64,000 nt of DNA, from positions 4,480,001 to 4,544,000 of the forward strand of contig CH464491.1 in the NCBI GenBank assembly GCA_000002445.1. The letters run 5' to 3'. This DNA comes from Trypanosoma brucei (Eukaryota). Under the pieces are notes generated by a model, which was given only the letters and a program-made list of their open reading frames with translations, searched no databases and was not told where the DNA came from. Below, piece after piece: positions 25,459 through 61,700 of this stretch. The position numbers and the translations under genes are program-made. The first letter of the stretch is position 1, and each line of letters opens with the position of its first letter.

Positions 25459-25465
25459 TGGATCC

Positions 25466-26671: not shown

Positions 26672-27421
26672 GTGACGGAGGACGGTACCGTGGTGTTGGT
26701 GCAATTCCCTCGTAAGCGTGCCCGTGAGGGAAACGTTGACGTCCCGGGGAAGGGCGAGGTGCAGTGCGGTGTGTGCCAAAAAGTGCTCAGTTGCAGGGAC
26801 TCCCTCATCCGACACTGCAAGGCTTTTCACAAAGGTGAGGGAGTCGAGCTTAAATGCAGCAAAAGCACAAAATTTTGTGCCACTGATTCCCCGCATACAA
26901 ACACATCCATGTTGGTTTGCCAGACATGCGGAAGGCAGTGTGCTAGCAAAACTGGCCTCACCCTATATCAAAAGAAGATGCACGGTATGAAGGTAGAGCA
27001 CGCTGTTACCAGCCAACGCGGCGACTGCGAAGAAACGTCGCTGCACCTGATGAGCTGTCTTGGTTTGAAGGAGTTACGTGTCAGGTTTGCGGTAGAAGGT
27101 GTGTGTGTGCAGGATGTATGTTTTTCTAAAAGGCTGGCGCAGTTTCTTATTGCAGTTGAACGGGGCCGGCTGCAGGTGCTTAGCACAATGGTGTCGATGT
27201 TCTCAGCTTCGGCGCAGGTCGTGCTTTTGTCTTCTTGCGTTGTGTCCGCACATGTTTCTCCTCCAGGTGTCCCTGTGATCTGCTGTGAGCACAGTGCTTT
27301 ATTCAGCTTGGCCTTAATTTCCGTTATTAGGCTTTTGGCGTTAGTGTCCATAGGTTTGCTTTTTAGTGTCGTCACTAGGTCTGCCGTTTCCTCTGCAGTG
27401 CTGTTGACTACCAACTTTTGA
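26672..27421 (+). pseudogene. ingi ORF fragment 3: C-terminal C2H2 fingers.
   Basis: CGVCQKVLSCRDSLIRHCKAFH and CQTCGRQCASKTGLTLYQKKMH. The overlapping ORF 26593-26820(-) and the alternative frames are not coding. Confidence 0.65.
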
Positions 27422-28335
27422 AGTCCCGTCAGCTCGGTGTTTGTTGGGGGTTTTTGTTTCTTGTTACATTAGCTGGTTGGGTCTTTGACTTGTTTCCGTG
27501 GCTGTAACCAGTTTGGCCACTGTGCTTGCCAGCCGACACCGGCTGTCTGAGAACAATACTTTTCTTTGCGAGCTTCCCACCCGTTTTTCCCTCTGGAGTG
27601 CCGAAAATCTCTTTCCACTTCTGGGAAGCCAAAGACATGTTCAGTTTGACGAGTTGGTCGAATTCAGTGGGCACGTCCGGTGCCTTATACGTTTGCAATT
27701 TCATCCTTTCCGCTACGTCCCAGTCCGGACACAAAGCATAAAACGGTACTAGTGCGTCTCCTACGGCTCAGTTTCCATGTCTGATTGCAGTCGAGACTAA
27801 CATAATTACAGCTTTAACAATGAATTGCATTTTGTTCCGCGGCCACTGGTGAAAATCACCCGGTGGTGCTAAAAAATGACTAAACCTTTAGATTAATATT
27901 AACATCTTAAAGACTGTAAATATTTATTGTAACACAACAGTTAAACTGCTTTTGCTGAATATTTCTTGTGCATTTCGCTACCAAACCGTTGCCTGAAATT
28001 CGAAAGTTGGTTACATTTAAAAAATCTAATTTTCTGCCATTAATCGCATATATTTGAATATTCCAGTGCTCTTTTCTTGTAAATCTCTTTACTTTCAACT
28101 CTCTATGCAAGGTAAACGTTTTAAAAATCAATTTAACTTTATCTTCTCAAGAAATAGTCTGTCCTGGTAAATGAATAAACGAAGCCTTTACAGTCACCCA
28201 ACTATTGGGAATAGTAAAAAATATCTCCTCATAATTTAATCCAATCATTCCTCTCCTCAAAACAAATCTCTATCCAACAGCTTCTTCCAACACAGCACTA
28301 CATATTAGCAACGGTTTGTAAATACTCTGCTCTGA

Positions 28336-28830
28336 CTACCATTCACCACTTCCCTTTAGTAACTCTCCAAATGCATATTCAAACCTTTTAAATGCCCAAA
28401 CTCTTGCGATTATATTTCCACTACTAAGATAAGGTTTTCCACTTGGAGTTGATTTCAGTAAATGAGGTAACTCTTTATTCTCTTCTTTCCTGTCAGCCAC
28501 ATTAAAAAACCAAAAACATCTCTGCACATGCTCCTTGTGAACATCTTCTTCACTAAACTTATCTTCATTTTCCGCCGTATTTTCTATAAAATATTCCACC
28601 GAGTTCTCATATTTATTTCCATCACGAGCGCTACCTATAACGTCATACCCATCAACTTATATTACAATATCCTCATAACTTGCATTCTGTCTTTCCAAAA
28701 ACTCCATAACCCATCTAGGTCTTTTAACATGGCTATATAAACCTCCCATCGCAATTGTAATAATTTCAACATGGCTTAGTTTTGCACTCAATATTAGTCT
28801 GCACCATCCTTGAGTTGCATGAGTTTACAC
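28336..28830 (-). pseudogene. Glycosyltransferase-like (possibly ESAG3-related) pseudogene, copy 1.
   Basis: Fragments ...GGLYSHVKRPRWVMEFLERQNASYEDIVI*VDGYDVIGSARDG... and MEYFIENTAENEDKFSEEDVHKEHVQRCFWFFNVADRKEENKELPHLLKSTPSGKPYLSSGNIIARVWAFKRFEYAFGELLKGSGEW. It contains a DxD-like hLDrSDViv/vDkCDVii motif. The assignment to ESAG3 (nucleotide-diphospho-sugar transferase fold) is from memory and uncertain. There are internal stops. Confidence 0.4.
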
Positions 28831-29904
28831 TAAAAATACAAACACTCTGGGTTTCTTAGTGTAATTCACTGACACTTTGTTTATGTTATTTATTTTCTCA
28901 CTTTCAAAAGATACTGTACTTAAATACACAATGTAATAACAGCGGTAGTAGTAAATTTCTCAATATACAAAACTTTATTGCCTAATATACCTTTATAATT
29001 TTATTCTGTTATTAGAAAAAATGTAGAAAACTCAAGAAAGATAAGCCAGATGTACTACTAAGCTGTTTAGTTAAGAAATAGTTTTATATACATAGGTATC
29101 GACTTGATATTGTTATGATGTATCTGCTGCTACATGTTTGCTTAGTGTGTGCAGCTTCTCTTTGAGCGTGCATCTACAGTCTTTTGTTTTAGAAGTCAGT
29201 TTTAGCAACAGCTGGTGCAGAGCACGCTAGAGTAATTCTACTTCTTTATTGCATTCTTTACATTTCACCTCTACACATAGTTATGTTGATGGAAGTAGCT
29301 GATTGCACTGATTAGTTCAGATATACTAGAAATTTTACCAGTTGCGTGTGCTAGCTATTCCAATTACACGGTTTCCATCATAAGACTCCCATCAGCGTAG
29401 CGTTTAAAGCTGCTGCTACTGCAATCATCTCTGAAAAGAATGTATCCATTATCAGTATAATACCGCAAATTTGTGGGTTATCCTCTTTATCATCAAGTAT
29501 CATTTTGTTTTTCGCCGTGCACTCGCATATATTTTTACTTCACTCCGTACTTTCTTTAATTTCTTTTCGTCTTCTGTTTCTTTTCCTATCGGTAATGATA
29601 ACGTAGCAACTCCATTTAGACTCTACACTGGACTGTTTCGCGCCTTCGTTTCCTCTTTAGTTAGCTCGATGTGTGTATAATACAAATTTTCATAGTTGCA
29701 GAAAAAGCTACACATATTACAGCTACATTTTTTTCTTCCTTCCCTTGACTTTCCTTCATCAATATTTTTCCTTCCCCTCGTCGTTCTATCTCATATTCAT
29801 TTACTCCCATTGCATCATTTTTCATATAGTACCCTTAGAATTAGTTTAAGTGCTTCTATTTCTGGTCTCCAGATGGTCCATACAACTTCTCTTATTATAA
29901 TATT

Positions 29905-29933
29905 TGTATATAAACACACTCATAACACTCTCC

Positions 29934-30015
<82 letters not shown>

Positions 30016-30819
30016 TAATTATTTTTATTAATTAATTATTATTATTAATTATTATTATTATTATTATTATTATATTATTATTATTATTATTATTATTTAT
30101 TANNNNNNNNNNNNNNNNNNNNNNNNNNNNNNNNNNNNNNNNNNNNNNNNNNNNNNNNNNNNNNNNNNNNNNNNNNNNNNNNNNNNNNNNNNNNNNNNNN
30201 NNAGGTATTATTATTATAATTAGTATAAGTATTATTAATATTATTATTATTAGTATTAGTATTAGTATTAGTATTAATAATATTATTAGTATTAGTATTA
30301 TTATTAGTATTAGTATTAGTATTATTAATAGTATTATTATTAATTATTATTAGTATTAGTAGTAGTATTATATTTATTATTATTATTAGTATTAGTATTA
30401 GTATTAGTATTATTATTAGTATTAGTATATTTATTATTATTAGTATTAGTATTATTATTATTAGTATTAGTATTAGTATTAGTATTAGTATTATTATTAT
30501 TATTAGTATTAGTATTATTATTATTATTAGTATTAGTATTATTATTAGTATTAGTATTAGTATTATTACTAGTATTATTATTATTATTATTAGTATTAGT
30601 ATTAGTATTAGTATTAGTATTATTATTATTATTAGTATTAGTATTATTATTAGTATTAGTATTAGTATTATTACTAGTATTATTATTATTATTATTAGTA
30701 TTAGTATTAGTATTAGTATTATTATTATTATTATTATTACTATTAGTATTATTATTATTATTAGTATTAGTATTAGTATTAGTATTAGTATTAGTATTAG
30801 TATTATTATTATTAGTATT

Positions 30820-30862
<43 letters not shown>

Positions 30863-31235
30863 GTATTAGTATTAGTATTATTACTAGTATTATTATTATT
30901 ATTATTAGTATTAGTATTAGTATTAGTATTATTATTATTATTATTATTAGTATTAGTATTAGTATTAGTATTAGTATTAGTATTAGTATTAGTATTATTA
31001 TTATTATTAGTATTAGTATTATTATTATTATTAGTATTAGTATTATTATTAGTATTAGTATTAGTATTATTACTAGTATTATTATTATTATTATTAGTAT
31101 TAGTATTAGTATTAGTATTAGTATTAGTATTAGTATTAGTATTAGTATTAGTATTAGTATTAGTATTAGTATTATTATTATTATTAGTATTAGTATTATT
31201 ATTATTATTAGTATTAGTATTAGTATTACAAGATA
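29905..31235 (-). repeat. 70-bp-repeat region: core (ggagagtgttatgagtgtgtttatata on the minus strand) plus a massively expanded (TAA)n / (ATTAGT)n array. Contains the 30103-30202 N gap.
   Basis: Long (tta)n then (attagt)n/(att)n mixtures seen directly. The conserved VSG-upstream 70-bp core motif is at 29905-29935. The predicted 385-aa poly-I/L ORF here is an artefact of the repeat. Confidence 0.8.
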
Positions 31236-31419
31236 AACAAAATGAACCAATTCATAGTAGCACTAATTTTGTACTCTCTGTTATCCTTCTACTTTACATC
31301 AACACGTCACTTTCATACATAATATACCAAGTTTTTACATTTTTTAATCCTTAAATTTCATTATATTTCTTTTTCTTTACAAACAATGTTAAAATATATC
31401 AAATGTTAAAAATTCTCTC

Positions 31420-33023
31420 GAAAAAGCAAGTTTTCATAAAATTAAAAAAAACACTTATAATAATCAAAATACAAGCAACTCACAAAACCAGAAACAATCA
31501 GAGCCAATTTCTTATTGACGAGAAAACTACCATTTCATAACTTTTCCGTATCCTTGTCATCCTCATTATCTTTGCCTTATCTAAATGCACGGCTTTGCTT
31601 GTCGCCTGTTTTTCTAGCGACGCAAACCTTCTTGTTGGTTCCGTGTTTTGACACACAGTTGAAGCTGTTCCCTCTGTAAACGTATCTCCTTTTCCCTCTG
31701 TGTTTGTCTGCTCTTTAACGTTGCTTTCATCTACTACGCACTTTCCATCTGTTTCTCTCTTTCCTTTCCATTTGCAGCCCTTTTGGACAAATTTTTCGTT
31801 ATTTTTGTGTTGTTTGCAGTCGTTGTTAGATGATTTTGGGGATACTGTCACACTGTTTTGGGTTAGTACTATTCCCAGTGAGTGCTCCACCGCTGCATAA
31901 GCAGTCGTATTCAGGTGCTCCGCCTTGGCCAGGACCTTTTTGTCGTCGTGGTTTGCTGTGTCTAGACTTTTGAGCGCTGTTTCTGCCTTGGCGGCTTCGT
32001 CTATCCAGGCTATATTGGCTTTCTTTGTTGCACCGTCTTTATGGCTTACGCACATGCCCCCGGCCGCTGAGGACTGGCCGCAGCAGCCGCCATTTGCATT
32101 GCCTTCGAGGTTTCCTAGAACGAAAAACTTGTCTGCGCCGCTTCCTTTTGGCTTACTGATCATTGAGAGTAGGCTTTGAATTGATCCTGTTATCGCGTCG
32201 GTTGAGGCCGCTGCAGGCTTTGAGAAGTTAGCGCATTGCGTTGTGAGGTGCTCGAATATCGCTTTGCCGGTTGTGGCACTGGTCCATTGTACATCTGGCG
32301 TCGGAGTGCATGCTTCGCAGCACGTTTTGGGTTTGGCTCAGACTTCGCCTGATTTTGCACAGACACATAGAAAGTCATTTCCGAGAGATGTGCCCGACAG
32401 CGTCCCCTTGTTGCCGCTCGCTGCGCCGCATTCGGCGTTTTGGTCGACGGCGTGCCCTACTCCAGCCTCCGCTGTGGCCGCAGGGCCTCCGTAAATGGCC
32501 TGCTCGGCTGCTGTTGTGAACGCCGATTTTTTGGTTTGTGGGCCGGTTATCGCTGAGTTCGTGCTATATTAGAATGCCCGTTCCGCTAAAGCTTTAAGGT
32601 GTTTTTTGTGCGCTCCAGAATGTTCGCTGCGTTTTTGAGCTCTCTTTCCTTTTGGTTTTTTGCCAGCTGTTGCCTAGATGCCAGCCATAAGTCATAGTAC
32701 TTGCCCCAGCTCGCTACAGCATCGGGCGGGTCCTTTGGTCTGTTTGGGTGGTTTTTTTTGGTCTGACTCCCTTCAGGGTCGAACAGGTTTCTAAAGTTCT
32801 CCGGGGATGCGGACATATTCAGAGCTCCAACGTCAGCCACTAGTGCTTTCAGTTCCGTAGTTACTTCGGCTGCCTCTGGTGGCGCCGTCAGAGCGTTGTA
32901 GAAGCCACAAAGGGTGCTGAACGCTGCCGCATTCGTGCTTTCGCCCGTTGTTGCCGTCTCGCCGATGTCGGTACTCTTTAAGATTGCTACAGTTAGTACA
33001 ATTACCCACTGTAATGCATTCAT
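31420..33023 (-). pseudogene. VSG: VSG pseudogene: frameshifted, N-terminal domain plus C-terminal domain.
   Basis: The N-terminal ORF 32586-33023 has a signal peptide (MNALQWVIVLTVAILK...). Downstream fragments sit in two other frames (32190-32378 and 31498-32163, with CKWKGK...). The GPI signal FLVNKKLALIVSGFVSCL is in a shifted frame. The 3'UTR 16-mer tgatatattttaacat is at ~31385-31400 on the minus strand. Confidence 0.8.
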
Positions 33024-33192
33024 TTCTTTGGTGTATTTAGTTTTTTAAAAGCTACTATCGCTGTGAGGGTAAGAATAGAATTTAAAGTATTGTTACTTTC
33101 TGACATCAGTACCGTTCCAAAGTTGTGTTGACAACTTTACATTTGTTTTCTTGCTTCCCAAGCAGGTTTAGACCCTTACACCTTCTTGTCTT

Positions 33193-34083
33193 TTACATAC
33201 CACTTTCTTTAAACATCCAACCACAAATTTTACCAAATTCAAAATCCCATTTCTTTCCATCTGTTGCTGAAGCTTGTGTTTTCCCATAATATCTTGTACG
33301 GAACTTCCTTGTATCCAGCATTTTGTACCAAATAGGATTTTTTCCAATCAACTTTGCTTTCTCTTTCCATGCAATTGGTAGACCTTGAAAATGAATGAAT
33401 AGAGCATCTCCAACTTCTACACCATGCGGAATACAAATGAATCTCTCTTTATAATCCAATTATCCCATTAATCAACAAAACATTTTCACCCACAACTTCT
33501 TCCTGAATTGCTCTCCAAATTAATAAGGGTTTATAAATACTTTGCTCTCACCACCATTCATCCCTTTGAATAACTCTTCAAAGGCAAATTCAAATTTCTC
33601 AAAAATCCATACCATTGCTATTAAACCTCCACCAGTAAGATAGGGTTTTACACTTGGAGGTGATTTCAGTAAATGAGGTAACTTCTTGTTCTCTTCTTTC
33701 CTGTGCGCAACATTAAAAAAACAATAATTTCTTTGTACATGCTCTTTGTAATCTGAGTGCAAAATAAAGTCCAACTGAGGTACATAGCAGTCGGATGTTG
33801 CCATGAATAGAATTGTGGAAATCTTTTCTCTTTTAATATATCTTCTTAACTAAACTTATCTTCCATCCCTGCAGTATTTTGTATAAAATACTTTACTGCA
33901 TTCCCATACATTCTCCTGATCATAAACAATGACATCAGATCTATCCAAATGAATTACAATATCCTCATCACTCGCATTCTGCTTCTCTAAAAATTCCATA
34001 ACCCATCTAGGCCTTTTAACATGGCTATATAAACCTCCTATCGAAGTTTTAATAATTTCAACATTGCTTAGTTTCGCACTCAA
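33193..34083 (-). pseudogene. Glycosyltransferase-like (ESAG3-like?) pseudogene, copy 2: the longest copy, in three frames.
   Basis: MSAKLSNVEIIKTSIGGLYSHVKRPRWVMEFLEKQNASDEDIVIHLDRSDVIVYDQE..., then ...YKEHVQRNYCFFNVAHRKEENKKLPHLLKSPPSVKPYLTGGGLIAMVWIFEKFEFAFEELFKG..., then ...ICIPHGVEVGDALFIHFQGLPIAWKEKAKLIGKNPIWYK... These are homologous to copies 1 and 3. Confidence 0.4.
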
Positions 34084-35094
34084 TATTTTTCTATATAATC
34101 CTTGAGTTATTGTCGTTGGAACTACAACTACAATAATTCTGGATTTTTATTGTCATCATCGGTTATGTTTGTCTTTGTTATATCCTCTTGAAGTGATATA
34201 GCACTTCGACACACTAAATGTAATATAACCAATAAATCTTTCAAGATACATAACTTTATGTCATAAAATACTTTAATGAATGAAAGGAATGTGTAAAACA
34301 TTTTTTGAATGTATATAAACTTGTACACTAAGTTTTTTAGTTGAAGAAACAGTGTTAACAAATATAAACAATATCTTTATATAGTTTAGATATGGGTTTT
34401 GAAAGAAATGCGCGTCGTGTCTAAAACTTATGTTTGAGCACACACTTGCGGTCCCTGTCTTAGAAGTTTGCTTCTGTCACGGCTAGCACCTCACACTATG
34501 ATTCTTTTGCTTTCACTTGCATTTATCGCATTTTTTAATTATGCATTTTTATGGTTATTACAGCAGGTAGGTGCACTATTAGTGGATACATACTGAGAAT
34601 TTTACTAATTTATACTGATAAATATTCTAAACATCGGATTTCATAAGGCCCTGATCGGAGTAGCTGTAATAACTACCGCACTGTTTTTGCTAGCATCATC
34701 TCCACCGCCGCGTCTCTCTATTATATAGTGAATCGTGGAGCACAACATTCTCCTGTATTATTTCTTTCTTTTTTACCTTCTGTCGCTGTTTTTATGGATA
34801 AATTGGAGTCACCAATTTGTCCTGCAATCCCTCTTTCCTTATTGTCCCCTCCATCTTATCTCTGTGTATGATGATTCCCATAGTAATGTTTATGTTTAAA
34901 ACTGAACATCTTTCACATTTTCACTTTCTCCTATTAATTATGTCTTTGTGCGTATCTTTTAATAACACTCTCAGTATTCCCATTCACTCTTTTACTCCAA
35001 CAATACCCTTGCCATTGTTTTAAATTCTTCTCTTTTGTTCAAGCTACATGGTCTTTACAGAACCTCCAATCTTCTTATATTAATAGTATGCACA

Positions 35095-35160
35095 AACTCA
35101 TAACACACTCCTACCACTATCATAATCATCATTATTATTACTGTTATAACCCTAAATCAC
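35095..35160 (-). repeat. 70-bp-repeat unit (single, minus orientation).
   Basis: cacaaactcataacacactcctaccactatcataatcatcattattattactgt is the reverse complement of (TAA/TGA)n + GGAGTGTGTTATGAGTTTGTG. Confidence 0.7.
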
Positions 35161-35354
35161 TCCTAATATCCATAAAATTAACAAATGTATAAATTAGAGT
35201 AGCATTCTTTTTTCGCACCGCATCATCATAGTAATTTGCACTGACAAAACACTTCCATATAAATATTTCAAAAATACACATCTTCATCAAAAATTTTTAT
35301 AATATATCAAATTTTAACAAATCTTAATTATTTTCATAAAATTGAGCAAAAATA

Positions 35355-36892
35355 CTTAAAATTATACAAACTTACCGACGCACAAATCGAAGCGAATTTC
35401 TTATTAACAAGAAAGTTGAAATATTTGGAAGAATTATTTCCCATTTGCAGCCGTGATCCTTTCCAGAATCACTTTCTGTTTTCGCTGCACATTTCTTCTT
35501 TTTCTTTTCTTCCCCTTTGCCCTTCTCCACCGCCACGCAATTATCACCTTTTAATTCGTATCCTTCTGTTGTTTTGCATTTGTCCTCGTATGTTATTGCT
35601 TGACACTTGTTGACTTCCGCTGAAGGCGTGATTGTGGGCTTGCTTGTTGATTCCGGCATTGCCGTGTTGATTTTTCCTTCCAAGTAGGCAATAATTTTGG
35701 CAGCCTTTGGCCCGGATGCAAGGTCTGTCAGCTTGCCGTTTATTTTCTCATCTCCTATTTGAAAAGAGTGCTCTTTTGTTTTCGTCTATTCAACGACATC
35801 CTTGGAAAAGGCTTCCACCGTGGGGCCTAGCGCGGCTTTTATCAGGGCTTTGGTTTTGCCTTTATCATTGTCATCTTTTTCAAATGGTTGGTTAAGCTGG
35901 AGTGCTATTAGCGTAGCGATCTCGGAATCAGCTTCTATGTCGCTCTAGCTTCCCTGAAGTATTGACGCGGTGTCTAGTTTTGGCGCGTTCAACGCATTAC
36001 AAACAGCCCGCGCCACTTTTGCGGTTCCGAGTGAATCCCAGGGCAAGCTGTCCGTTTTTGCTTTGCATCCACCGCGTTTAGTTAGTGTGTCAAATATGTC
36101 AATATCCGCTGTCGCTTCTAACAGTGCGCCGGCGCTGCCTAGTTCTCCTAAGTATCTTCCATTTTTGGCGCTGCTGTCGGTGTCGACGAACCCTGGATGG
36201 CCTGAGAGTGCCCTGTGACCTTCTACTGGTGTGCCTTTTACAGCTGCTTTCAGTGTTATACTTGCTTGTTTCAATATTGCGTCGTTTATCATTTTTAGTT
36301 TGTAAATTTCATCCGCCTTGACGTCTGCTTGTTTGACTTTGTGGCCTGCCGTTAGATCGTCAATGTTGCAGTTGGCTCCTGTTTCGACTGTTGTCACGGC
36401 CGCTTTGTTCGTTGTCACTACTGTTGTTGTCGCTGGTGAAGCTTCGCTTGTTTCTTGCGTTGCCGTTCCTGGCTGTAGAGTTTTGATCCGTAGTTTTCGG
36501 CACATGATTAGCCTGTGCACCCTTGTCTTTAGTACCGTTGCCGCTGCTTCCAACTTTTGGTCGTAGTTTGGTAATTGTGTTAGTGCAGCCATTGCATTCG
36601 CTTCTTCGATGCTTGCTAGAGTACGCAGCCCGGCTGCTCTTTCTCTTCCGCCTTCCGCAGTGGCCAGTCTTAGTGCTGCGGCGGTTGCTGACAGCGTCAG
36701 AGCTACTGAAGTTCCTGATGTCGCTTGCTGTCTTGACATAGAATCCAGCGCTAGATCGTACCGGATTTCCCCACAGCTCTCTGTTACTTGTTGGCCGGCA
36801 TCGTGTACGCCATCTGTTGTTGCTGCGGTCGCGCTCCGGTGGAGAACCAATGCAGTCAGTAAAGTTACGTAGAGGGAAATGGATATGAACAT
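35355..36892 (-). pseudogene. VSG: VSG pseudogene: A-type N-terminal domain intact as a 315-aa ORF, C-terminal domain frameshifted.
   Basis: 35945-36892: MFISISLYVTLLTALVLHRSATAATT... with a long N-terminal domain. 35372-35683: CTD with CKWE. The GPI signal SSFLVNKKFASICASV is in a shifted frame. Confidence 0.8.
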
Positions 36893-38574
36893 TTTTGTTC
36901 TTGAGGTTTCTCTAGCGTTGTAGAGCGGTGTAATTTCTGTTAAATGCGATTTAGCTACTTGATTTGGTCGTTTTAAAAGTTTGGCTTTAGTCTACGGCGG
37001 TTTTGGAGCTGGTAGTTGCCGACCGCCGCGAGGTTAGTGATGGATCTGTTTTGCTCAAGATGAGGAAAAAAAAAGCGATTTTGTGAGTGTCCATTACGCT
37101 TCCAGTAGCATTGTTTGGTCAGTTGGCCGCTGCTATACGATGGCACTTGTATGCTTTGTGCGGCCTCTTTTATGCGATGCTGTTTTCTGGAAATGTTTAT
37201 GGTGAACATCCATATGAAGGCACTCATCGTTTGCGAATTTCCCTACAAAAACACTATCGATTCCCTCTTTTCTCCTGTTTCGTTATTAGAACCAGTTGAA
37301 TATCGCATATTAATAATCAGACCGCATTTTCGGTGGTATCTTCGCCGACATTCTGTGTTGTCTTGCTGAAGACTGTCTATACAAAAGTTCAGTTATTATT
37401 TTTTTGTTACTTTTCTTAACCATTTTTCTGTGGAGGCCACCGTTTTTCTTTTTGATTTCGCCATGAATCTCATTTACTTCGCCACAACCACGCATGCTGA
37501 CGCTACTCAGTGGTCTAATAGTGCCTTTTTCGTATAAGATACAGTAAATATGGGTCGCTTTCTGTTGCGCGGTTCCTTGTTTCTTTCAAAGTAATCGGTG
37601 TAGGCCCTGATTGAACTATACTGGGATGTGAATAGTATATTTCGCTGGGCCTCTCTCGTATTTTTGCCCGCCGTTAGTGCCACGCTTAATTTATAACTCC
37701 GCAGAAAACTGTCTGCAGAAGGGGCTGAAATTGTGATCAGTAAAGGCCACGCTTGACAAGTTTCTCTCTATCTTTTTAAAAATAGATTCATTTGCGCTTC
37801 TATTATGCCAACTCCTTCTGATCTACTAAATTTCTCATTGATCTTTAATTTTCATTTCTTCAGTTGGCTATGTTATAGAAAAAAACAAAACACTTATTTC
37901 TAACTAATAACATTTCCAATCTACATGAGTGCGCGGTTCACAGAAACTAACATTTTTTACACTCTCTTATGATGAAATCAATATATTATTACTGCTGTTC
38001 CTCTAGCAATTAGAATAATCCTTGCATCTTCTGCTAGTCTTACTAAATATTGCGTTAGTATATACACTTGCCGAAGAATCGGGTTCAATATTTAGCTGCT
38101 CGTTTCAATTCTCTTCCACACACGTGTGAATAACGAAGATGGACACATTTTTATACACATGAAACTGCATTATTCATTTTTATTCTATGTGGTAGACTGC
38201 TGTACCTCAATTACAGTGCTTTAAGTGATAATAGCGCATTTTCCAAAGAGTTCTAAAAAAATATTCGCAACACTACTTTTAAATATCTTGTACTTACAAT
38301 GCTTCTTTGTGTTAGTTGAAATAAATCCATTTGGCATACACACTGGATTTTCTGTATCCACCTCATTGGTCCCCCCATTATTATTCTTGTGTATGATCAG
38401 TCCATTGCTATGATGTCATTTGTAACTGCTTACATGCTAACTGCTCCTTTTTTAACAATAATTCTCGTGTTATTTCCCCGCCGGAACCACTATCGCACTC
38501 ACTTCTATTGGTCCAATTTCAATCTTTATTTTTTTGCCTCTATTTAGAATTCCAATTTAATGTCAGCATATACT

Positions 38575-38660
38575 ATTATAATATTAGTATATACACACTC
38601 ACAACGCTCTCTTATAATTGTTATAATAATTATTCATTGATATTATTGTCATAACCGTAA
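38575..38660 (-). repeat. 70-bp-repeat unit.
   Basis: atattagtatatacacactcacaacgctctcttataattgttataataattatt. Confidence 0.7.
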
Positions 38661-38981
38661 GTAATATTCATGAAATAAGTTAAATTAAAATATTTTCATG
38701 ATATCATTCATTTTGAATACCATGTCACTTTACTTATACTTTTTCCCCGTAAGCCATTACCATATACAATTTACAAATTTCATATTTTTAAAAAATTTTC
38801 ACATTTCCAACGAAAAGTTTTAAAGTCTATATCAAATTTTACAAAACTTTCTCAAAATACTAAATTTTACAAATTTCATAAGATTTAGCAAAAATCCTTA
38901 TAAAGATAGAATGCCACCGCACTCACAAAAGCATTAACCGTATTTACAGCAATTATTTATTTACAAAGAAGTAAAAGAGCG

Positions 38982-40621: not shown

Positions 40622-41989
40622 CTTCTGGGTATAAGTATCTCAACAATGATTAAAAAGTGAGGAAAATAATGCTGAAAAAACGCAAGGTTATTGGGTGTAG
40701 ATGGATCCAGCTTATGCAATCTGTAGAGGAAAAATTGGAAAACTTTGTCGCTGCATCCTCTTAGTGTATGAGTAAAAAGGAACGGGAATTAGCCGATGAA
40801 TTTCTATTTTTAATTCAAATACAGATTATTCCATATATATATATATATACACTGAATTTAGCTTCGAATATTAATGCATTGCAACGTATCTTTAAAAAAT
40901 AACATACATATTTCTACGATTAAATTTTCAAACCTTGCGCTTAGCTATCATTTTCTGCTGGCGGCAACTCAATACACGCTGTCATAATAACCAAGCAATA
41001 CCACTATATATTCCGGTCATGAATGACTCTTTGTTTCTGAGTATTATCATCTTGCACTTCTTTGGGTCTATAGCGTTTAGCACTGAGCAGTGTAGCTGGT
41101 AAATTACATTTTTGTAGCTTTGGTTTATAAAACCGATCTTTTAGCTGTGCATCAGCATCAAATCTTATGTTAAATAACAGCTTATCGAAGGGCCGTAGTG
41201 TTTGTCAGCATACCTATACGGATTTTGGAAAGTGTAACTATTGATTCTCTATCCTTTGTAAAAATTCTTCATTAGTTCATGTTGGTCATTTCAGGTAGTT
41301 TTCAAGTTTTTACTTTTTTTTCTGTCCAGGGTAATATATTACTAATTCTAGTTTAAAATCAACCTCCAAATAATATTATATTACTTAACTCAAACCTTCA
41401 CGCGTATTGCTGTATATGGTAATAAGAGTTCAATTTCACTTCATACTTGTTCAATCCATTTTTCTGCTTCTGCTTCTTAATTTTCTTGTTTGGAGATGAA
41501 TGCTAAAATTCACAATCACATTAAATATAACAGAAGCAGCATTATCTTCGAAGTTTTTTCTAACCATTCCAGCCCGCAGTACAGTGCATCATCGTGTACC
41601 CTACGCCGTTGTATACTACTTTACTCCCCGCCATTTTGAGTATTCCATTTATTTTTCTCCGTATTCTATTTCCTTTCTGGTCTTCTGTAATAATTGCTTC
41701 GGTTAGTGTTTTGACTTCTTTTTGTCCATAAAATAGACTCTGGTTCTTTCCTGTTGTCTCCTTTTTCTCATTCTTATGATCACGTATTCAATCATTATAT
41801 TTGTATTTGAAACTGCGAATATTTCTTCATTCCCTTCCATTTCCCTCTTTGTGGATTTGCTTGCTTTTAAAAATATTCTTCATGCTGTAATATTTCCTTA
41901 CCCAGCAACTTCCATTATACCATTTTCGTTGGTTAGAGTACATTTGATCGCCAGCCATTTAGTCACCACAACCACCGCTCAAAATATTA

Positions 41990-42060
41990 AAATATTAGTA
42001 TATACACACTTACAACACACTCCTATTATTACTATTATTATTTATTATTTATTATTGATA
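41990..42060 (-). repeat. 70-bp-repeat unit.
   Basis: ttagtatatacacacttacaacacactcctattattactattatt. Confidence 0.7.
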
Positions 42061-42400
42061 ATACTGTAATAATTCTAATTAATATCCATAGAATAGACAA
42101 AATAAATAAAATTATAATTTAACTTATTTTTCATACTATATCTCCTTACTACTTGATATCGATAGACACTATGATATATATTTTACTGTAATTTTAGATT
42201 TTACAGTTTTTGGTTATCCACATTTTGCAAAGAATTTACAAAAGTGTTAAAATATATTAAATTTTATAAATTTTACCGAAGTCTATCAAGCACGAAAATT
42301 TCATATAACTTCATAAATTGAGAAAAAATCCATAAAGTGATAAAATACTGAAATTATACTGGTTTTATAAGGGAAGCAGTAATCAGAGCGAATTTTTTAT

Positions 42401-43931
42401 TTACAAGATAACTGGAGTCAAAGCATTTAATTTTTTTTGCTTTTTCATCCTCTTTATCTTTCCCACACTCCATACACAATGCTTTTTGGCATCCTTGTTT
42501 ACTGCCTCACATTCCGGTTGTGTGGTAATTTTTTCTGCAGTCAGATTTCCCATCTTTCCAGCCTGTTTCTTTATTTGCTTACTCTGCTGCTTTTTGTTTG
42601 TCTTTTTCACTTAGCATGCACCTTTTTTTTCATCATTTTATTCCTTATCCCATATGCAAGGTTTTCACATTTTTTTCCTTTGTTAAGCTTTTTTCATTAT
42701 ACTTTGGCTTCTGAGCTCTGATCACTTGAATCGGTGGACCCTGAATCCCTTCTGTTGTCGGATTCTGCGCTGCTTGGACTGTTAGGGCCGCACGTGGAAC
42801 AGGGTGCGCTCGCTTCTTCAGCGCCTTCATGCTTGCTTCAAGCGCATTGTGCCTTGCGATGGACTACTCTTGCTGATACAGTTCGCTAGGTCTCCTAGAT
42901 CGTCCAGCCCATGGATCTTGTCTGCGTAGTTGCTGGCCGCATGTACCGTATCTGGTGAATTTTCCACATGCGCCACTGCTATTTTGACCATCACGGTCGC
43001 TGCCGTGGATCACGCCATAGTAGCCATGGCTGTTTATGACCTTAATAGCGTTACGTATGTTGTGTGCTAGCTGACTCACCGCTGCCGAGGTTGCTTGGAA
43101 TACCTTGCGGTGAAGACAGTGGCCAAAAACTTCGCCAAACTCCCGTTTCCAGTCCGGGGCTGAAGCGTCTGTCCAGGCGTTGGTCATAGTCTGCTTTCGG
43201 AAGCAAGGTGTGGCTAGGTTGGCTCTGCTGTCCTTGACACATATACAGAACATTACCGCGGCTGCGCTCGTGGCCTTTTGGCCCTCACAGTCTGTGGTTC
43301 GCGAGTTGGTTGCACCATTTAACGCTTTGGTTTCATCAAAGGTGTTATCAGTGGCTTTGGCTCCGTAAAATTTTTGAATTAAGATCGCTTTCACGCTTTG
43401 TTTATTCTGTGTGTTTGCTGTTTCCTGATCAGCTGTTATCTGAGCTCGCAGCTCCACCGCTTCGGCCAGTGCTGTGGTTACGAGTAGCCAAGCCTGGTCA
43501 GCTTGCTCTGCGGTTAGTTTTCCTTGCCTCACGCCTTTTAATTCTGGTATAATGTTGTCTGTAGAGGTAAGCCGTTTGTGTGCCGAAATCCATGCTGTCC
43601 AGTGTGTCTTCCAGCTGTCGTCTATTTCCCCTGGAGTTAGTGAATAGTTTTTGGCCACTTCTGCCCAGTCAGATGTTTCTTTTCCCAGGGCTAGTTTTGT
43701 GAACCATGAAGGTGGTGCGAAGGTTAGATTGAGGTCCTGCAAAGATGCCAAGCTATCGTCCTCGTCGACCGCCCGTTTCGGCAACTCGATGTCCGCATTG
43801 GCTGCTGCGCCTATAGCACACAAATGGTTGAAATAGATATGGTTCTCCGTTGGATCAACGTTTCCAGCGGCGTGCTTTGTTGCTAAAACAGCAATGAACG
43901 TCGCTGCTGCTATCTTATTGAGCGAAATCAT
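42401..43931 (-). pseudogene. VSG: VSG pseudogene: B-type N-terminal domain as a 355-aa ORF, CTD in other frames.
   Basis: MISLNKIAAATFIAVLATKHAAG...AAVMFCICVKDSRANLATPCF.... The C-terminal fragments 42645-42830 and 42401-42610 are in different frames. Confidence 0.8.
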
Positions 43932-44634
43932 TCGTGCAGTTTGATTTGTTCCCTGTCTTGTGCTACAAAGAGTTGAACAACGTAGAGAAAGTAACGAAAC
44001 CGCTGACTCTGTATACGCAACATTACCGAAGTATTACCTGCTTGTTAGAAATGGAGCCGGTACTGGAGTGCCACCTCCGTGGTGTCGCTTTAAGTCTTTG
44101 CAGCTTGGGCCTGCCGTTACGCTTGCCTGCTCTCCGATCGCGGTGGTATTTTCCATAAATTTTAAATTCTGTTATCTCTTTTACATTAGTTATTTTCTAT
44201 CCCGGCGTCACGTCTTATGTGTAGAGATTACTTCTTTATCCTCTGAAAAACCGACCGAAAATAAAACTCACTCATATTCTATAAATGAACATTGTATTAT
44301 GAGCTTTCTGCTTATGATTATCATCTTTTTTCTCTATCACATTAAAAACTACAGACAAAACTCTCATCTTTACAGTAGGGTCTATCCTTTTTTAGTGAAA
44401 TGTGTTATACAAATTCCTCCTCTATCTTTTCCTTTTGTGCTGCTTTGGTGCATAATCTGTCATTTCATTCACCATTTTCTCTTCTTTCTTTTCTCGAGTA
44501 CGGCTTTTCCACGCAAGATCTGTCACTAAAAAACTCTTTCATTCCTTTTCGCACACCGATTGATATTCAAACGCAATTCAAACACTTCTGTTGCTTTAAT
44601 TTCAACTTTGATCACGGATTTGCCTCACATACCT

Positions 44635-44700
44635 TGCAATAATAACCAACACTCATAACACACTTCTCTCATTATCATTATTATCACTATAACAACCTTA
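44635..44700 (-). repeat. 70-bp-repeat unit.
   Basis: aataaccaacactcataacacacttctctcattatcattattatcac. Confidence 0.65.
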
Positions 44701-44992
44701 AATAATATCCTTGAAGTCAAAAAAATAAACCAAATCAGAATAGCGCAAATTTTTCACATTATATTACTCTATACCTTTACACTTATAGTGCACTCTTACA
44801 TCAAATTTTCACTTTTAATCGAAAAGTTTTGATTTTATCAAATTTTATCAAACATTCTCAGATTTATCTAATTATCTGAAAAAACAAAATTACATAATTT
44901 TCAAAAAAAGTGAGCAAAATCCTTAAAATAATAAAGCTCTACAGAACTAATATAAGAAAAAATCAGAGAAATTTTTCTTATTGACAAGAATA

Positions 44993-45304
44993 CTACCGTT
45001 TCGGATTTTTTTCTGTAACATCTTCACCATGTTTACCCTTTCCAAATGCACAATTTTGTTTGTCATCTGCTTTGTCATTTTCCCAACTCGTTTTATCACC
45101 ATGTTGCTTACAGTTAGAGTACGTTGCCCCCTCTAGTTGCTCTTCTGCTCCTGCTGCTGCATTTTCTGCTCCTAGTTTATGTTTGCATTCCCCTTTTCCA
45201 TCTTTTTCTTCCAATTTGCAACCTTTGTTTGTGCAGGTCGTGTTTGTTTTGTGGTCATTGCAGCCTGGTCTATGAAGCTCTGTCGCACCTTCCTGTGCGG
45301 TCAT
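44993..45304 (-). pseudogene. VSG: Orphan VSG C-terminal-domain fragment with no N-terminal domain upstream.
   Basis: ...CTNKGCKLEEKDGKGECKHKLGAENAAAGAEE...CKQHGDKTSWENDKADDKQNCAFGKGKHGEDVTEKNPKR is the cysteine/lysine-rich VSG CTD type. The sequence upstream on this strand is telomere-hexamer-like and A-rich, not a VSG N-terminal domain. Confidence 0.6.
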
Positions 45305-45584
45305 TGAAGAGAAGCACCTCGCAAAGCGCAGAGCTGAAATTCACAAAAGAAAAATTATGGTGCTGTGTAACGATGCGTGAGTAAAAACGAATATGAGAAA
45401 AATTCAAGTGAAGATGGCCGGCCGCTAAATAAGGATAAGGATGGGCACCAAAAAACGTTGTATTGCTAAACAAATTAAAAATATATTGTAAATAAACAAT
45501 AAAAAAGAAATTAAATAAAAAGAAATCCAAAAATTTTAAATAGTTAAAAAAACTAAGCACCACTGCAGAACTGTGGTCAAATAA

Positions 45585-45917
45585 GGGTTAGGGCGAGCAC
45601 CAAAAATGTTCTGCTGTATTACATAAAAAAATTAAAGTCGCGACGTTTCCCGACTGGTAAAAAAAAAACTTATTAGTAATGGGAGAAATAACCCTAACCC
45701 TAACACGCTCTAGAATTAGTTTCTTTTTTATATTTGACCGCAACTTCTGCTCTCTGCAGAGACAATCTCAAAAACCGAAAAAAAACGAAGGTAAGGAATT
45801 TTTTAAAATGCGCGAGATTTTATAAAATTCGCCAAAAGACACAAAAAAATAGAAAATCGATTAAAATATTGAAAAATCCTAACCCTTAAGCCTTTTTTTC
45901 TAAAAACCCAACCCTAA
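45585..45917. repeat. Degenerate interstitial telomere-repeat relic. TTAGGG orientation is at 45585-45593; CCCTAA orientation is at 45690-45704, 45878-45888 and 45907-45917. It lies within an A-rich low-complexity tract.
   Basis: gggttaggg; aaccctaaccctaac; cctaaccctta; cccaaccctaa read directly. Confidence 0.7.
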
Positions 45918-46076
45918 AAGTTCAAAAAAATCAACAAAAAAGGAGAAAAATTTTAGCTGCCGGAAAAAACTTACAGAGTCACAATTTTACAAAACCACAC
46001 TATTCCAGAGAACTTAAAGGTGTAAAAATATATCAGAGTAGCAAGAAATTTTTTAAAAAGAGGGAATAAAAATCTT

Positions 46077-47850
46077 TTAAAACAGAAAAACCACAAAGGC
46101 AGCAGCCATGAGAGCGAATTTATTATTTACAAGACAACAGGAATCCTTGCAAGTATTATTTTCCCATTTGCAGCCATCTTTCTCTCCTGTTTCTTGTTTT
46201 GCTTCTTTTCCTGCTTCCTTTTTTGCATTCTCGCCCAATGTGCATTTTCGGCTATTCCTTCCATCCTCTTTAAATATGCACCCCTTACCCTCAAGGTTTT
46301 TGCATTTATTTTGGTCATCTCCTGCTGCACTGCATTCTTTTTCGGCTTCTTGTTGTTTTAGTTTACTTGTGTCCCCCGTTTTTTTCGGTGACTTTGCTGT
46401 ACCGTCCGCGACTGCCGCTGACAGTGCTGTTAGGTGAAGATTCGATTCCAATGTTTCTTTGAATGTTTCTATTCTGGCTTCGGCAGCTACTGTAGCTTGT
46501 GCTTCTTTTTCGTATTTCTCAGCTGCTCCTGCTGCATTTTGGAGCTCTGCTAACCACGTCGGGAATGCTATTGTATTCGCGCCGCTTGTTAATGTTGCGC
46601 AGTCGCCTTTTCCTCCTGTGGCGTCGCCGTCGCAGTTACCTGCACCGGCGTTCGAGTCCGGGTGCCCTATATATCCGATTGTGCCATCGTTTCCTTTGGG
46701 TTCGTATATCAAGCTGTTTAGCTTGTTCGTCAGGTGTCTGAGTTCCTGCGCTGTCGCTGTTTGATGTGGTGCCGCTTCGCTTTTGCAGTTCTTTGCTATG
46801 ACGTCCCAGGCTGTGATAGCTGTGTTTTCGTTCCAGTCTGCTTGCGCGGTTGTTGCGGTCTTGTAGCATGCGGTGTTAGCGTTGTCGGATTTGCTTCCTG
46901 ACGCACACAGACAAGCTATAGTAATGCCGATCGAAAGTTTGGCTGAAGTCCCGCCCGTCGCTTTTGTTCCGCAGTGCGCCTGGCTGTCGCTTCCTGTGCC
47001 TAGTAGTTTCGGTTCTGGGTCTGTCCCTTCACCGCCTTACACTGCCTTTTTTAGGGCTGTAGCTATTTTCTGTTTTTTTGGCTGCAATGCTGCCCGCATC
47101 GAGTAGCTTCGCCTTTGTTGCTAGCAACTTGTTTAGAGTTGTGTTTAAGTTCCGGCTTAGCTGCGTTGGGTCTGTGGCTGCTCTTTTGAGTGCCGTTTGG
47201 CCTGCAGACGGCAAGCTCTTGAGGTAAGTGGATGCCGCTATACATTCTGCGCGACCGCTTCCACGGCACTTTTCCGTTATGTCGGTGTCCGGTGGTTGTT
47301 TCGACTGTTGTTCGGGTGGTGTTACGGCAAGTTTTTTTATTGCCAAGTAGTCACTTAGAATCAAAGATATGTGAGCAGCGGTTTCGGCTGCATTCTTTGC
47401 GTTTTTTTCATGCCTGTGGTAGGTCTTTAATGTTTTCTGAAGAGACAACTGCGGTGCACAATATGCCAAAGTTTTTCCTGTTTAGACCTTTTGCTGGGCC
47501 GGTTGCGGAGGCCGGTCTGAGCGACGACTGCAAGAGCGCTGCCATCGATATGGCTAAAGCAACCGCCGATTTGGCTATATCTCCTGGTTTCATTTTGTCG
47601 TTTCCCGTTGATGTCGTGGATATCCTATTGCTGCGGGTTGCGTGCTGTTGTTGTGCTTCTTGGTAGTGGCTCCCCTTTGATTCTTGAAGGTTGTGAAGTT
47701 TTTGTAATGCCACTTTCAGGTTCTTGTTTGTCGGCTTGCAGATTACCTTTTCTGGCCTTGTGCCCAGTTGCGGCCCCGCTGCCGTCTTTTGTTATCCTTA
47801 GCTTTCCTTCTCCAAGAGGTGTCAGTGGCAAACTCTGTGTATCCGAATCC
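46077..47850 (-). pseudogene. VSG: VSG pseudogene: complete CTD with GPI signal, N-terminal domain frameshifted.
   Basis: 46077-46712 ends ...GCKWENNTCKDSCCLVNNKFALMAAAFVVFLF*, a canonical CTD plus GPI-anchor signal. N-terminal fragments are at 46636-46869, 47029-47469 and 47408-47713 in other frames. Confidence 0.8.
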
Positions 47851-48216
47851 TATACTGCTAGTTCCTTTTTATGGAGTAAAGAAAAACTTATTCAGGCATA
47901 TACAATATGAGATTTTATTCACATTTTCTTAGGTGAGTTTTTTAAAATATAGTATTTATGAACATCCTGACACCATTTTTAATAAAAATGTGTTTTCGAC
48001 TTCACATAGCATAACAAATGATATTTAAGGTAAATAATTTTGTATCAACGGAGACAAGTGACTCACACATTAGGAAATGTAAATTATCACTATAAATAAT
48101 TTTGTTTTTCATATTTTCACCTTGAGTAAAGGTTTATGTTGGCATAAAAACCTACGGCCACCATGACCTAAATTTTTTTACAGAAAGATGTTACATACTT
48201 ATTCCAATCTATAGAA

Positions 48217-48257
<41 letters not shown>

Positions 48258-48399
48258 GCATCCACATACCTCCTCAGATTTGATTCTGTAATTATTACAA
48301 AAATATCACACATATCTTGTGCTTGAAAAATCATGTTGTATGGCTTCTAATCTGCTATATCTGTTGCTGAATACTTTCCTGTATACTCCTTGTTAGTAA

Positions 48400-49150
48400 C
48401 AACGTAAAGTCTTTGTTTGGCCAGTATACGAGGTGCTGTTCCTGATTCCTTCAAAAAATTGTATTCTGTTTTGTTTCTTTCGCTCACGATTTTTCAATTT
48501 GTAGTTTTCTGGAACTTCCTCTGTGCCCTGCTCTGGTGGTTAAGTAGAGTGCTCGTCGCAGATAGTAAAAGGGTCGATCCCCGTGGGCGGAAAGTGTTTA
48601 GCCTACGCTAAGGATGGATATGCCTCAACGTGGCGCTAGGGTTCAGGAACAGAAAAGAAATAAACTGGGAAGTCAAATGTTCCATCCAAACGGCGGCCGC
48701 AACACCGGATATGGAGCGACCGCTCCGTGGGGAGAGAACCATTACTTAGTGTTCCACCACGGTTCAGCACCCTGCTCAAGTGGGGGAACCAAAATCCCTG
48801 ACTTAACCTCCGTCCGGAGAGGAAGATGGATATGGTAAACATGGTTCAGACGCAAAGGAGGAGAGTATGGAATCGAACGGGCACCAAATGGAGAACGCTA
48901 CCCTAAACACGCGCACATGCAGTCGCCCACCGGTGGGTATCAATTCTATGAAAAACAGCGGGTTTTAGTGGGTAGGAACGCCGGTACAGCGTTGAGGCCC
49001 ACACTACCATGCCCTCGTGGTGTGGTGTGCGTAAATGCATTTCCTCCTACCCTCGTGTGGACTGACTGCATGGTCCCGACAGTTGCTCGAGAGAAAATCA
49101 AAAAAAATGTCTTATGTTTTTGCTACACTTGGAGAACTGCATACCCGTAA
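48400..49150. other. Compositionally distinct, GC-normal island with a tRNA-like motif (gggtcgatccccgtgggcgg at ~48560-48580). Identity unknown.
   Basis: The sequence is unlike the flanking AT-rich VSG-array spacers. It has a T-arm-like GGTCGATCCCC, but I could not fold a convincing cloverleaf. Confidence 0.25.
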
Positions 49151-49545
49151 AGCTGACACTCAAGTATTACAACTCCTTTGTTTCTAAAAATTAACTTCTA
49201 CACAAGCATTACCACAAAACACTACATAATAAAAATTCCATTTCCAGCTACCAAACGCTTATGTTTTAAGTTCCCCCAAATTGTTACCGTAAATTGTTTT
49301 CTTTCCAAGTATTCATACCAACTAATATTTTTAACAATCAATTTAACTTTATCTTCTCAAGAAATAGTCTGTCCTGGTAAATGAATAAACGAAGCCTTTA
49401 CAGTCACCCAACTATTGGGAATAGTAAAAAATATCTCCTCATAATTTAATCCAATCATTCCTCTCCTCAAAACAAATCTCTATCCAACAGCTTCTTCCAA
49501 CACAGCACTACATATTAGCAACGGTTTGTAAATACTCTGCTCTGA

Positions 49546-50050
49546 CTACCATTCACCACTTCCCTTTAGTAACTCTCCAAATGCATATTCAAACCTTTTA
49601 AATGCCCAAACTCTTGCGATTATATTTCCACCACTAAGATAAGGTTTTCCACTTGGAGTTGATTTCAGTAAATGAGGTAACTCTTTATTCTCTTCTTTCC
49701 TGTCAGCCACATTAAAAAACCAAAAACATCTCTGCACATGCTCCTTATGTTCTGAGTTCATAAGCAAATCCAACTGAGAAACATAACACTCTGATGTTGT
49801 CATGAATATAATAGGGGAAATATGCTTCTCTTTTACTATATCTTCTTAACTAAACTTATCTTCCATCCCTGCAGTATTTTGAATAAAATACTTCACAGCA
49901 TTTCCATATTTTTCACGGTTGGATATTATAACATCACACTTATCAACAGTTATTACAATATCCTCATAACTTGCATTCTGTCTTTCCAAAAACTCCATAA
50001 CCCATCTAGGTCTTTTAACATGGCTATATAAACCTCCCATCGCAATTGTA
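49546..50050 (-). pseudogene. Glycosyltransferase-like (ESAG3-like?) pseudogene, copy 3.
   Basis: MGGLYSHVKRPRWVMEFLERQNASYEDIVITVDKCDVIISNREKYGNAVKYFIQNTAGMEDKFS plus MTTSECYVSQLDLLMNSEHKEHVQRCFWFFNVADRKEENKELPHLLKSTPSGKPYLSGGNIIARVWAFKRFEYAFGELLKGSGEW. The stretch 49322-49745 is identical to 28122-28545. Confidence 0.4.
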
Positions 50051-50284
50051 ATAATTTCAACATGGCTTAGTTTCGCAGTAAATATGAGCCTATACTATCC
50101 TTGAGTTGCATGAGTTTTAACTACAACAACGAACACTCTTGGTTTCTTAGTATAATTCACTGACACTTTGTTTATGTTTTTCATCATCTTGATGAGATGC
50201 AGCGCTTAAACCACACTAATAGTAAAACAACAGTATAAGTGTATAAATATCATATTTCCTATTCTAATCTACTTTAAAACATTG

Positions 50285-50330
50285 AGTCTGTTGTGAGTTT
50301 GTGTATACGAATATTATAGCAATAGTGTTT
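50285..50330 (+). repeat. 70-bp-repeat core (plus orientation) upstream of the VSG at 51190.
   Basis: ctgttgtgagtttgtgtatacgaatattatagcaatag. Confidence 0.65.

Positions 50331-61269: not shown

Positions 61270-61700
<431 letters not shown>

Follow-up and report, generated by a model that had tools for sequence, protein, structure and literature searches.

Dispersed ESAG3 pseudogenes in a silent VSG array of Trypanosoma brucei are probably mosaics produced by segmental gene conversion

We analysed a stretch of 64,000 nucleotides from Trypanosoma brucei (GenBank assembly GCA_000002445.1, contig CH464491.1, positions 4,480,001 to 4,544,000 of the forward strand; hereafter the window), which contains three dispersed pseudogenes of ESAG3 among genes and pseudogenes for the variant surface glycoprotein (VSG). 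The three pseudogenes are called A, B and C and are all located on the minus strand. A tblastn search with ESAG3 yields exactly three loci in the window and no fourth one, with E-values of 1e-150 for C, 1e-130 for A and 7e-92 for B. Their extents were derived from tblastn and frameshift-aware protein-to-DNA alignment, for copy A together with multiple alignments (aa, amino acid positions). A first-pass annotation, made by reading the sequence without database searches, had placed three such copies on the correct strand and at the correct locations, but the real extents are longer at A, B and C alike.

28021..28978, minus strand: ESAG3 pseudogene A, covering aa 1-347
33181..34235, minus strand: ESAG3 pseudogene B, covering aa 11-367
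49169..50253 (DP core 50178-49196), minus strand: ESAG3 pseudogene C, covering aa 12-368

When copy C is translated and searched against the database, just one protein matches significantly, a T. brucei protein of 368 aa (E = 5.4e-146, 76% identity, 99% coverage), whose 90% cluster consists of annotated ESAG3 from Lister 427 bloodstream expression sites (BES), from TREU927 and from T. b. gambiense. The ESAG3 assignment tentatively made in the first-pass annotation is borne out by this match and by the naming of the cluster; the protein search it had proposed, here performed with the translation of copy C as query, thus leads to ESAG3 and not to an unrelated family. At the amino acid level the copies are 63-72% identical to the 368-aa BES ESAG3, with homology over the full length (frameshift-aware alignment). 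At the DNA level, copy B shows approximately 70-75% identity to A and C (self-BLAST), and it is recovered at 99.9% identity in contig L002 of an independent assembly, that of T. equiperdum OVI.

An intact start is missing from all three copies, as is an intact open reading frame (ORF) that would encode about 368 aa including an N-terminal signal sequence. Copy A lacks the ATG start and carries stops at aa 52, 108, 242, 264 and 305, one frameshift and an internal deletion of 29 codons (87 bp) with its junction between 28541 and 28540. In copy B we find stops at aa 142, 243 and 363 together with five frameshifts, and in copy C stops at aa 59, 142, 242, 264, 305 and 338 together with one frameshift near aa 329. 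With three to six in-frame stops and one to five frameshifts per copy, the earlier pseudogene call holds: A, B and C are non-functional ESAG3 relics and not protein-coding.

Comparison of the copies reveals a number of tracts in which two of them are nearly or completely identical:

28119..28539, minus strand: main tract shared by A and C, A side; 421 bp, 99.3% identical to 49329-49749; aa ~171-311; contains the stops at aa 242, 264 and 305
49329..49749, minus strand: main tract shared by A and C, C side; partner of 28119-28539
28660..28782, minus strand: second tract shared by A and C, A side; 123 bp, 100% identical to 49951-50073; aa ~68-108
49951..50073, minus strand: second tract shared by A and C, C side; partner of 28660-28782
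49837..49881 (= 33837-33881), minus strand: perfect patch shared by B and C; 45 bp, holding the shared stop at aa 142, with A as the outlier
49751..49837, minus strand: 87-bp segment present in B and C and deleted in A; immediately adjacent to the 421-bp tract, at the 5' edge of that tract in gene sense

The main tract had been described earlier as an equality of 28122-28545 with 49322-49745. This block is real at an offset of 21,210, whereas the offset of 21,200 implied by those positions gives only about 25% identity, as expected by chance. Three mismatches occur within the 421 bp (at 28125, 28422 and 28537), and the single mismatch reported before applies to a core of 411 bp (28126-28536). 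Similarly, the resemblance proposed between 28700-28870 and 49960-50130 is genuine although its coordinates are about 30 bp off: self-BLAST aligns 28543-28893 with 49840-50184 at 84% identity. In the region of the 123-bp tract copy B is 89% identical. The divergence noticed between the two tracts is also confirmed, given an identity of approximately 71% over 28545-28659 and the 87-bp segment that is missing from A.

A fourth sequence, copy E, was found through database ORF P0035 and resides in a 2.1-Mb record of assembly GCA_003543875.1 (locus L003):

L003 4983-5672 (CM010678.1 232913-243200, GCA_003543875.1): ESAG3 pseudogene E, lacking its 5' part up to about aa 72 and sharing the deletion site of copy A

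Copy E is about 78% identical to A and carries a deletion at the same site within 1 bp; the junction reads GAAGATGT followed directly by TCACAAGG in A, and GAAGATAT followed directly by CATAAAG in E. Given that the deletion is present both in A and in a copy of only about 78% identity, it is an old character of a sublineage of ESAG3 pseudogenes. The variants VDGYD and FSEED are common to A and E, and in the same segment B and C carry each other's variants. Consequently the grouping changes along the sequence: upstream of the deletion it is (A,E) against (B,C), whereas inside the block A equals C, with B and E as outliers. The four-way alignment gives the following identities between A and C:

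28896-28783, aa ~25-67: 82%
28782-28660, aa 68-108: 100%
28659-28545, aa 109-142: 71%
deleted in A, aa ~143-170: no comparison
28539-28119 (block), aa 171-311: 99%
28118-28030, aa 312-347: 57%

The edges of the main block are abrupt. They can be located within 1-10 bp, one of them coincides with an indel, and identity falls from 99% to 57-71% in a few bases. Within the block, B and E reach no more than 73-79% identity to A and C (73% for B), showing that the block is not a generally conserved region. In a permutation test, in which mismatch positions were shuffled 10,000 times, the perfect runs between A and C (296, 123 and 114 bp) exceed the permutation maximum of 113 bp (p <= 1e-4), and the perfect run of 45 bp between B and C is likewise significant (p <= 1e-4). 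Runs of polymorphic sites give the same picture, with 91 concordant sites for A and C (p <= 1e-4) and nine for B and C (p <= 2e-4). The inactivating lesions follow the tracts: the stops at aa 242, 264 and 305 are common only to A and C and all lie inside the main block, the stop at aa 142 is common only to B and C and lies inside the 45-bp patch, and each of the remaining lesions is private to one copy.

Taken together, the incongruence between segments, the abrupt edges and the shared lesions confined to tracts form the signature of segmental gene conversion. We consider it very likely that these dispersed ESAG3 pseudogenes in a silent subtelomeric VSG array are mosaics that arose in this way. 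The patchy gene conversion suggested by the first-pass annotation thereby gains support from the run statistics, from the shared stops that are restricted to tracts and from the segment-wise conflict with a fourth sequence. Both conversion as the mechanism and the recency of the transfer are what we infer from the aligned sequences.

The mosaics would have been formed by short-tract, non-reciprocal homologous recombination between dispersed ESAG3 pseudogenes. In such a scheme the 421-bp and 123-bp tracts would have passed between A and C, which are 21 kb apart, and the 45-bp patch between B and C, while the intervening segments of the copies would derive from different sublineages of ESAG3 pseudogenes. 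The 5' edge of the large tract lies at the old 87-bp deletion of A, where the heterology probably halted extension of the heteroduplex. Transfer may have occurred from A to C, from C to A, or to both from an unseen copy, as each of these fits. Mosaic VSG formation rests on segmental conversion among silent subtelomeric paralogues, and the case described here is similar in its short identity tracts, its abrupt edges and its dispersed, diverged paralogues within the same array; homologous recombination is presumed to be the common mechanism. The difference lies in the substrate, which is an ESAG3 relic instead of a VSG, so that neither an expressed product nor a selective benefit is implied.

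A number of points weigh against this interpretation. The comparison comprises only three to four sequences, and multiple unseen donors may exist. Identity between A and E is 78% in the block and 76% upstream of the deletion, which fits A or C as donor alike. Furthermore, the window contains three 100-N gaps, and the independent T. equiperdum OVI draft (GCA_001457755.2), which was assembled with Velvet (k=33) from 2x150-bp reads (PMC5278650), joins the flanks of the block in a different way. OVI record L001 consists of two contigs joined by 10 Ns, the left of which (1-1644) runs from the 3' flank of A (27099-28118) through the block into C-type sequence up to 49950. At 28125 its base is of the A type, at 28422 and 28537 of the C type, which places the switch inside the 296-bp perfect run. 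Hence either the sides of the block are wrongly joined in at least one assembly, or there is a further copy.

Given OVI reads of 2x150 bp assembled at k=33, the path switch in L001 is plausibly a chimera, which would lie at positions 1029-1326 of OVI contig CZPT02001161.1. With one independent short-read contig joining the flanks differently, the linkage across the block is uncertain, while the existence of a repeated block appears robust. The right part of L001 matches two window segments in succession, 50046-51491 and 56881-61431, with 100% identity. Contig L002 follows window positions 46979-31200 collinearly, with about 0.1% of positions differing (N gaps aside), and reproduces copy B and its cassette. 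Look-ups of the exact products of the ORFs at 49546-49803, 28336-28599, 49846-50040, 33520-33804 and 42864-43931 recorded no further contigs, and a word-indexed protein search with the translation of copy A across the deletion junction gave no match. As a separate observation, the window fills the gaps of 10 Ns in the OVI contigs; given this and the small difference from OVI, it represents an identical or very near Trypanozoon strain, assembled more completely.

It might be argued that the block was made or homogenized during assembly or polishing, through chimeric repeat paths or correction with mis-mapped reads. The window is indeed a scaffold with 100-N gaps, and a 100% inverted duplication (10020-10814 and 11114-11908) directly behind one of the gaps implies that local artefacts exist. 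The OVI path through the block is itself a hybrid of the A flank and C-type sequence, and OVI reads (2x150 bp, k=33) are too short to span 296 identical bases. Nonetheless, both assemblies hold the block with two 3' flanks and two 5' continuations, which requires at least two genomic copies, and a collapse deletes a copy but cannot create one. The three single-nucleotide differences that discriminate A from C recur in OVI, with the A-type base beside the A flank and the C-type bases beside the C-type continuation. Moreover, the deletion junction next to the block of copy A is a genuine, old variant that recurs in another genome. The contig behind L002 runs about 2.4 kb past the part that was retrieved, so that its extrapolated end would fall approximately 40 bp into block C, as a k=33 graph would give at the edge of a genuine repeat. 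We therefore regard an assembly artefact as quite unlikely.

Another explanation is that A and C are recent duplicates of a whole copy and that conversion from other ESAG3 pseudogenes subsequently replaced their now divergent segments, in which case the identical tracts would be the remnant of the duplication. The 5' segment is 82-88% identical between A and C against about 62% to B; the divergent segment of A, including the deletion, resembles the sublineage of E, and that of C holds the B-like 45-bp patch with its common stop. However, at E < 1e-3 the flanks of A show no relationship to those of C except for generic sequence following the 70-bp repeats, no larger duplicated segment survives, and the 3' tail just past the block has already dropped to about 57%, the background divergence. 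As several conversions would still be required, this scenario, which we judge unlikely, differs from segmental conversion between dispersed copies in its history and not in its mechanism. Finally, the block could be held identical by a role at the sequence level (an RNA or a regulatory element) that is independent of ESAG3 coding. Nothing beyond the identity of the block itself speaks for such a constraint. The merely 73-79% identity of B and E to A and C in the block and the three common stop codons lead us to reject it, and the abrupt edges (1-10 bp, one coinciding with an indel) point the same way, making this the most improbable of the alternatives by far.

With regard to the protein family, the description of the copies as glycosyltransferase-like was right in kind, but the family that had been proposed, PF03407, was the wrong one. 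The Pfam check suggested for it is negative throughout: neither the three copy translations (at E <= 1) nor intact ESAG3 (at E <= 10) nor any of 29 family members (at E <= 0.01) gives a match. These 29 are the aligned subset of 46 ESAG3 relatives found in an exhaustive HMMER search. PF25342, the glycosyltransferase (GT) domain of PLOD, is the sole Pfam signal for ESAG3 and stays below threshold (16.5 bits against a cutoff of 27); copy A reaches 16.4 bits, also below that cutoff. Among the distant ESAG3 relatives 11 of the 29 match PF25342 (best E = 3.2e-10), and a profile of the ESAG3 family matches the LH3/PLOD3 glycosyltransferase structures at E = 1e-8. These profile searches indicate that the correct label is a GT-A glycosyltransferase of the PLOD/LH3 type (PF25342), and not PF03407.

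This label agrees with a 2026 preprint, based on cryo-EM and enzymology, in which intact ESAG3 is reported to be a VSG O-glucosyltransferase that depends on Mn2+ and whose GT-A fold most closely resembles that of LH3 (bioRxiv 10.64898/2026.01.27.701950). The catalytic positions given there are D110-x-x-D113, G215-G216, W242, E244/Q245 and H297, with W242 described as essential (bioRxiv 10.64898/2026.01.27.701950). In our alignment of 29 relatives the invariant or near-invariant columns are D110, D113, G215, 244, Q245 and H297, which are the catalytic residues superimposed on LH3 in the preprint (bioRxiv 10.64898/2026.01.27.701950). The likeness to the LH3/PLOD3 GT domain thus comprises the profile match, the PF25342 hits among the relatives and the shared catalytic positions. 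On the other hand, ESAG3 itself is sub-threshold on PF25342, the copies in the window are dead, and ESAG3 is reported to assemble into an 18-mer ring and to act on VSG as a protein O-glucosyltransferase rather than to modify collagen (bioRxiv 10.64898/2026.01.27.701950). Frameshift-aware alignment still recognizes the codons for D110, D113, G215, E244, Q245 and H297 in A, B and C. In A and C a stop has replaced W242 and N stands in place of G216, whereas copy B retains all of the listed catalytic positions and yet is frameshifted. In the pseudogenes these codons serve as homology markers and are without functional meaning.

The surroundings of the three copies contain the following features:

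11738-15499, plus strand: intact receptor-type adenylate cyclase of 1,253 aa, ESAG4/GRESAG4-like (PF25493, PF25495, PF00211)
22324-27421, ending near 27875, plus strand: ingi-type non-LTR (long terminal repeat) retroelement with three ORFs (endonuclease and reverse transcriptase, RNase H, zinc finger)
29889..31228, minus strand: long array of (TAA)n/(TAATAC)n, interrupted by an N gap (30103-30202) and closing with the canonical 70-bp GT-rich half (29889-29933)
31-48 kb, minus strand: run of VSG (pseudo)genes (Pfam)
31498..33023, minus strand: VSG pseudogene directly downstream of copy B, with a B-type N-terminal domain (32586-33023) and a C-terminal domain (31498-32163) in separate ORFs
35071..35143, minus strand: one degenerate unit of the 70-bp repeat, preceding copy B in the minus sense and forming the 5' edge of a cassette that continues with copy B and the VSG pseudogene (motif scan and sequence)
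50283..50325, plus strand: GT-rich half of a 70-bp unit, TAA half absent; head-to-head with the truncated 5' end of C (50253) and serving the first plus-strand VSG
51-61 kb, plus strand: run of VSG (pseudo)genes (Pfam)
59505-60917, plus strand: intact B-type VSG of 470 aa, its protein identical to one in T. equiperdum OVI GCA_001457755.2

Overall, the context of the copies is of the array type, with tandem VSG (pseudo)genes that mostly have a single 70-bp unit each and are found on both strands. The ordering of an expression site is not seen around the copies: ESAG6/7 are absent, and so is any other order of ESAGs. With up to three mismatches allowed, nine sites carry the GT-rich half of the 70-bp repeat, against 0.13 expected, and most of these precede a VSG in matching orientation.

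In the minus sense, VSG-like ORFs (36892-35372, for which Pfam gave no match) are followed by the unit at 35143-35071, copy B, the VSG pseudogene (33023-31498), the array (31228-29889), copy A and the ingi element. The VSG pseudogene is recognized by PF13206 (E = 8e-17) and PF10659 (E = 2e-5), and the 70-bp unit consists of a TAA/TGA-rich half followed by GGAGTGTGTTATGAGTTTGTG. Copy B had been placed between a 70-bp repeat and its VSG, which is true with the single unit at 35071-35143. The large array at 29.9-31.2 kb was considered as the cassette repeat of B and ruled out, lying in the minus sense downstream of the VSG of B and upstream of A. Its microsatellite part extends over about 1.3 kb (29934-31228), and the GT-rich half is found solely in the last unit. 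Copy E occupies a cassette position unlike that of B, just after the 3' end of a VSG and before the next 70-bp unit (L003 7778); the placement of ESAG3 relics in arrays thus appears variable.

Copy A is the first gene past the TAA array in the minus sense, the place where a VSG normally follows a long 70-bp array. The A-rich 3' end of the ingi element lies approximately 145 bp from the 3' end of copy A (as judged from the sequence only), so that the element appears to occupy the place expected for the downstream VSG of A. Pfam searches for that VSG, covering ten ORFs to the left of the ingi element and at 27429-27734, gave no matches. The intact adenylate cyclase is located about 7 kb from the ingi element and 12 kb from copy A, and no exact match to its product was present in the contig index. 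Copy C heads the minus-strand VSG array. In the region next to it (50254-50325), the half-unit (50283-50325; GAGTCTGTTGTGAGTTTGTGTATACGAATATTATAGCAATAG) lies exactly at the flip in AT skew (about 50 kb) and at the switch of the VSG arrays from minus to plus. The arrangement resembles a breakpoint, of an inversion or a recombination event, within a 70-bp repeat.

ESAG3 has been described as "also in VSG arrays" (PMC3607257), and pseudogenic ESAG copies are prevalent in the arrays (PMC4766357). In expression sites, recombination breakpoints coincide with ESAG3 loci, and in BES7 and BES15 ESAG3 pseudogenes are situated 3' of 70-bp repeats (PMC2567434), a position that copy B shares. The copies in the window resemble the known ESAG3 genes and pseudogenes of T. 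brucei in lying among VSG genes, 70-bp repeats and an ingi element. They differ from functional BES ESAG3 in that none is intact and that they reside in silent arrays and not in a promoter-driven expression site. Hence neither the presence of ESAG3 pseudogenes in VSG arrays nor gene conversion in subtelomeres is new, and the window provides a clear instance. Its value is mainly for annotation: three ESAG3 pseudogenes and short-tract exchange between paralogues of a silent array. In addition, where diverged repeats contain nearly identical stretches of 300-400 bp, these have just the size that breaks short-read assemblies, and it is here that the OVI path differs.

A more far-reaching proposal, which we consider very doubtful, is that ESAG3 pseudogenes in arrays act as dispersed homology anchors and donor fragments that occasionally patch the functional ESAG3 of an expression site. 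If so, copy B would travel into an expression site whenever its VSG is duplicated, which would explain the ESAG3 pseudogenes of BES7 and BES15. Such patching would diversify the reported VSG O-glucosyltransferase in the way mosaic VSGs are built, and the hybrid A/C contig of OVI could be a real, longer tract specific to that strain instead of a chimera.

Several minor observations concern the remainder of the window. Segments 10020-10814 and 11114-11908 are exact (100%) reverse complements of each other; the former directly follows the N gap at 9920-10019, and the repeat overlaps the start of the adenylate cyclase ORF. This inverted repeat is probably an artefact of assembly or scaffolding, and possibly a real palindrome. 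On the plus strand side, a unit of two VSGs is duplicated directly (51418-55458 and 56881-60910; 4 kb, 92.8% identity), with the second unit starting right after the N gap at 56781-56880. In OVI scaffold L001 (1655-7577) the sequence equal to 50046-51491 runs straight into the second unit (56881-61431). Either OVI skipped the first unit, or the gap at 56781-56880 hides a second copy of the region upstream of the first unit, possibly with another ESAG3 pseudogene. Finally, a perfect (TAA)77 (61409-61638) is contained within an otherwise canonical 70-bp unit at 61 kb.

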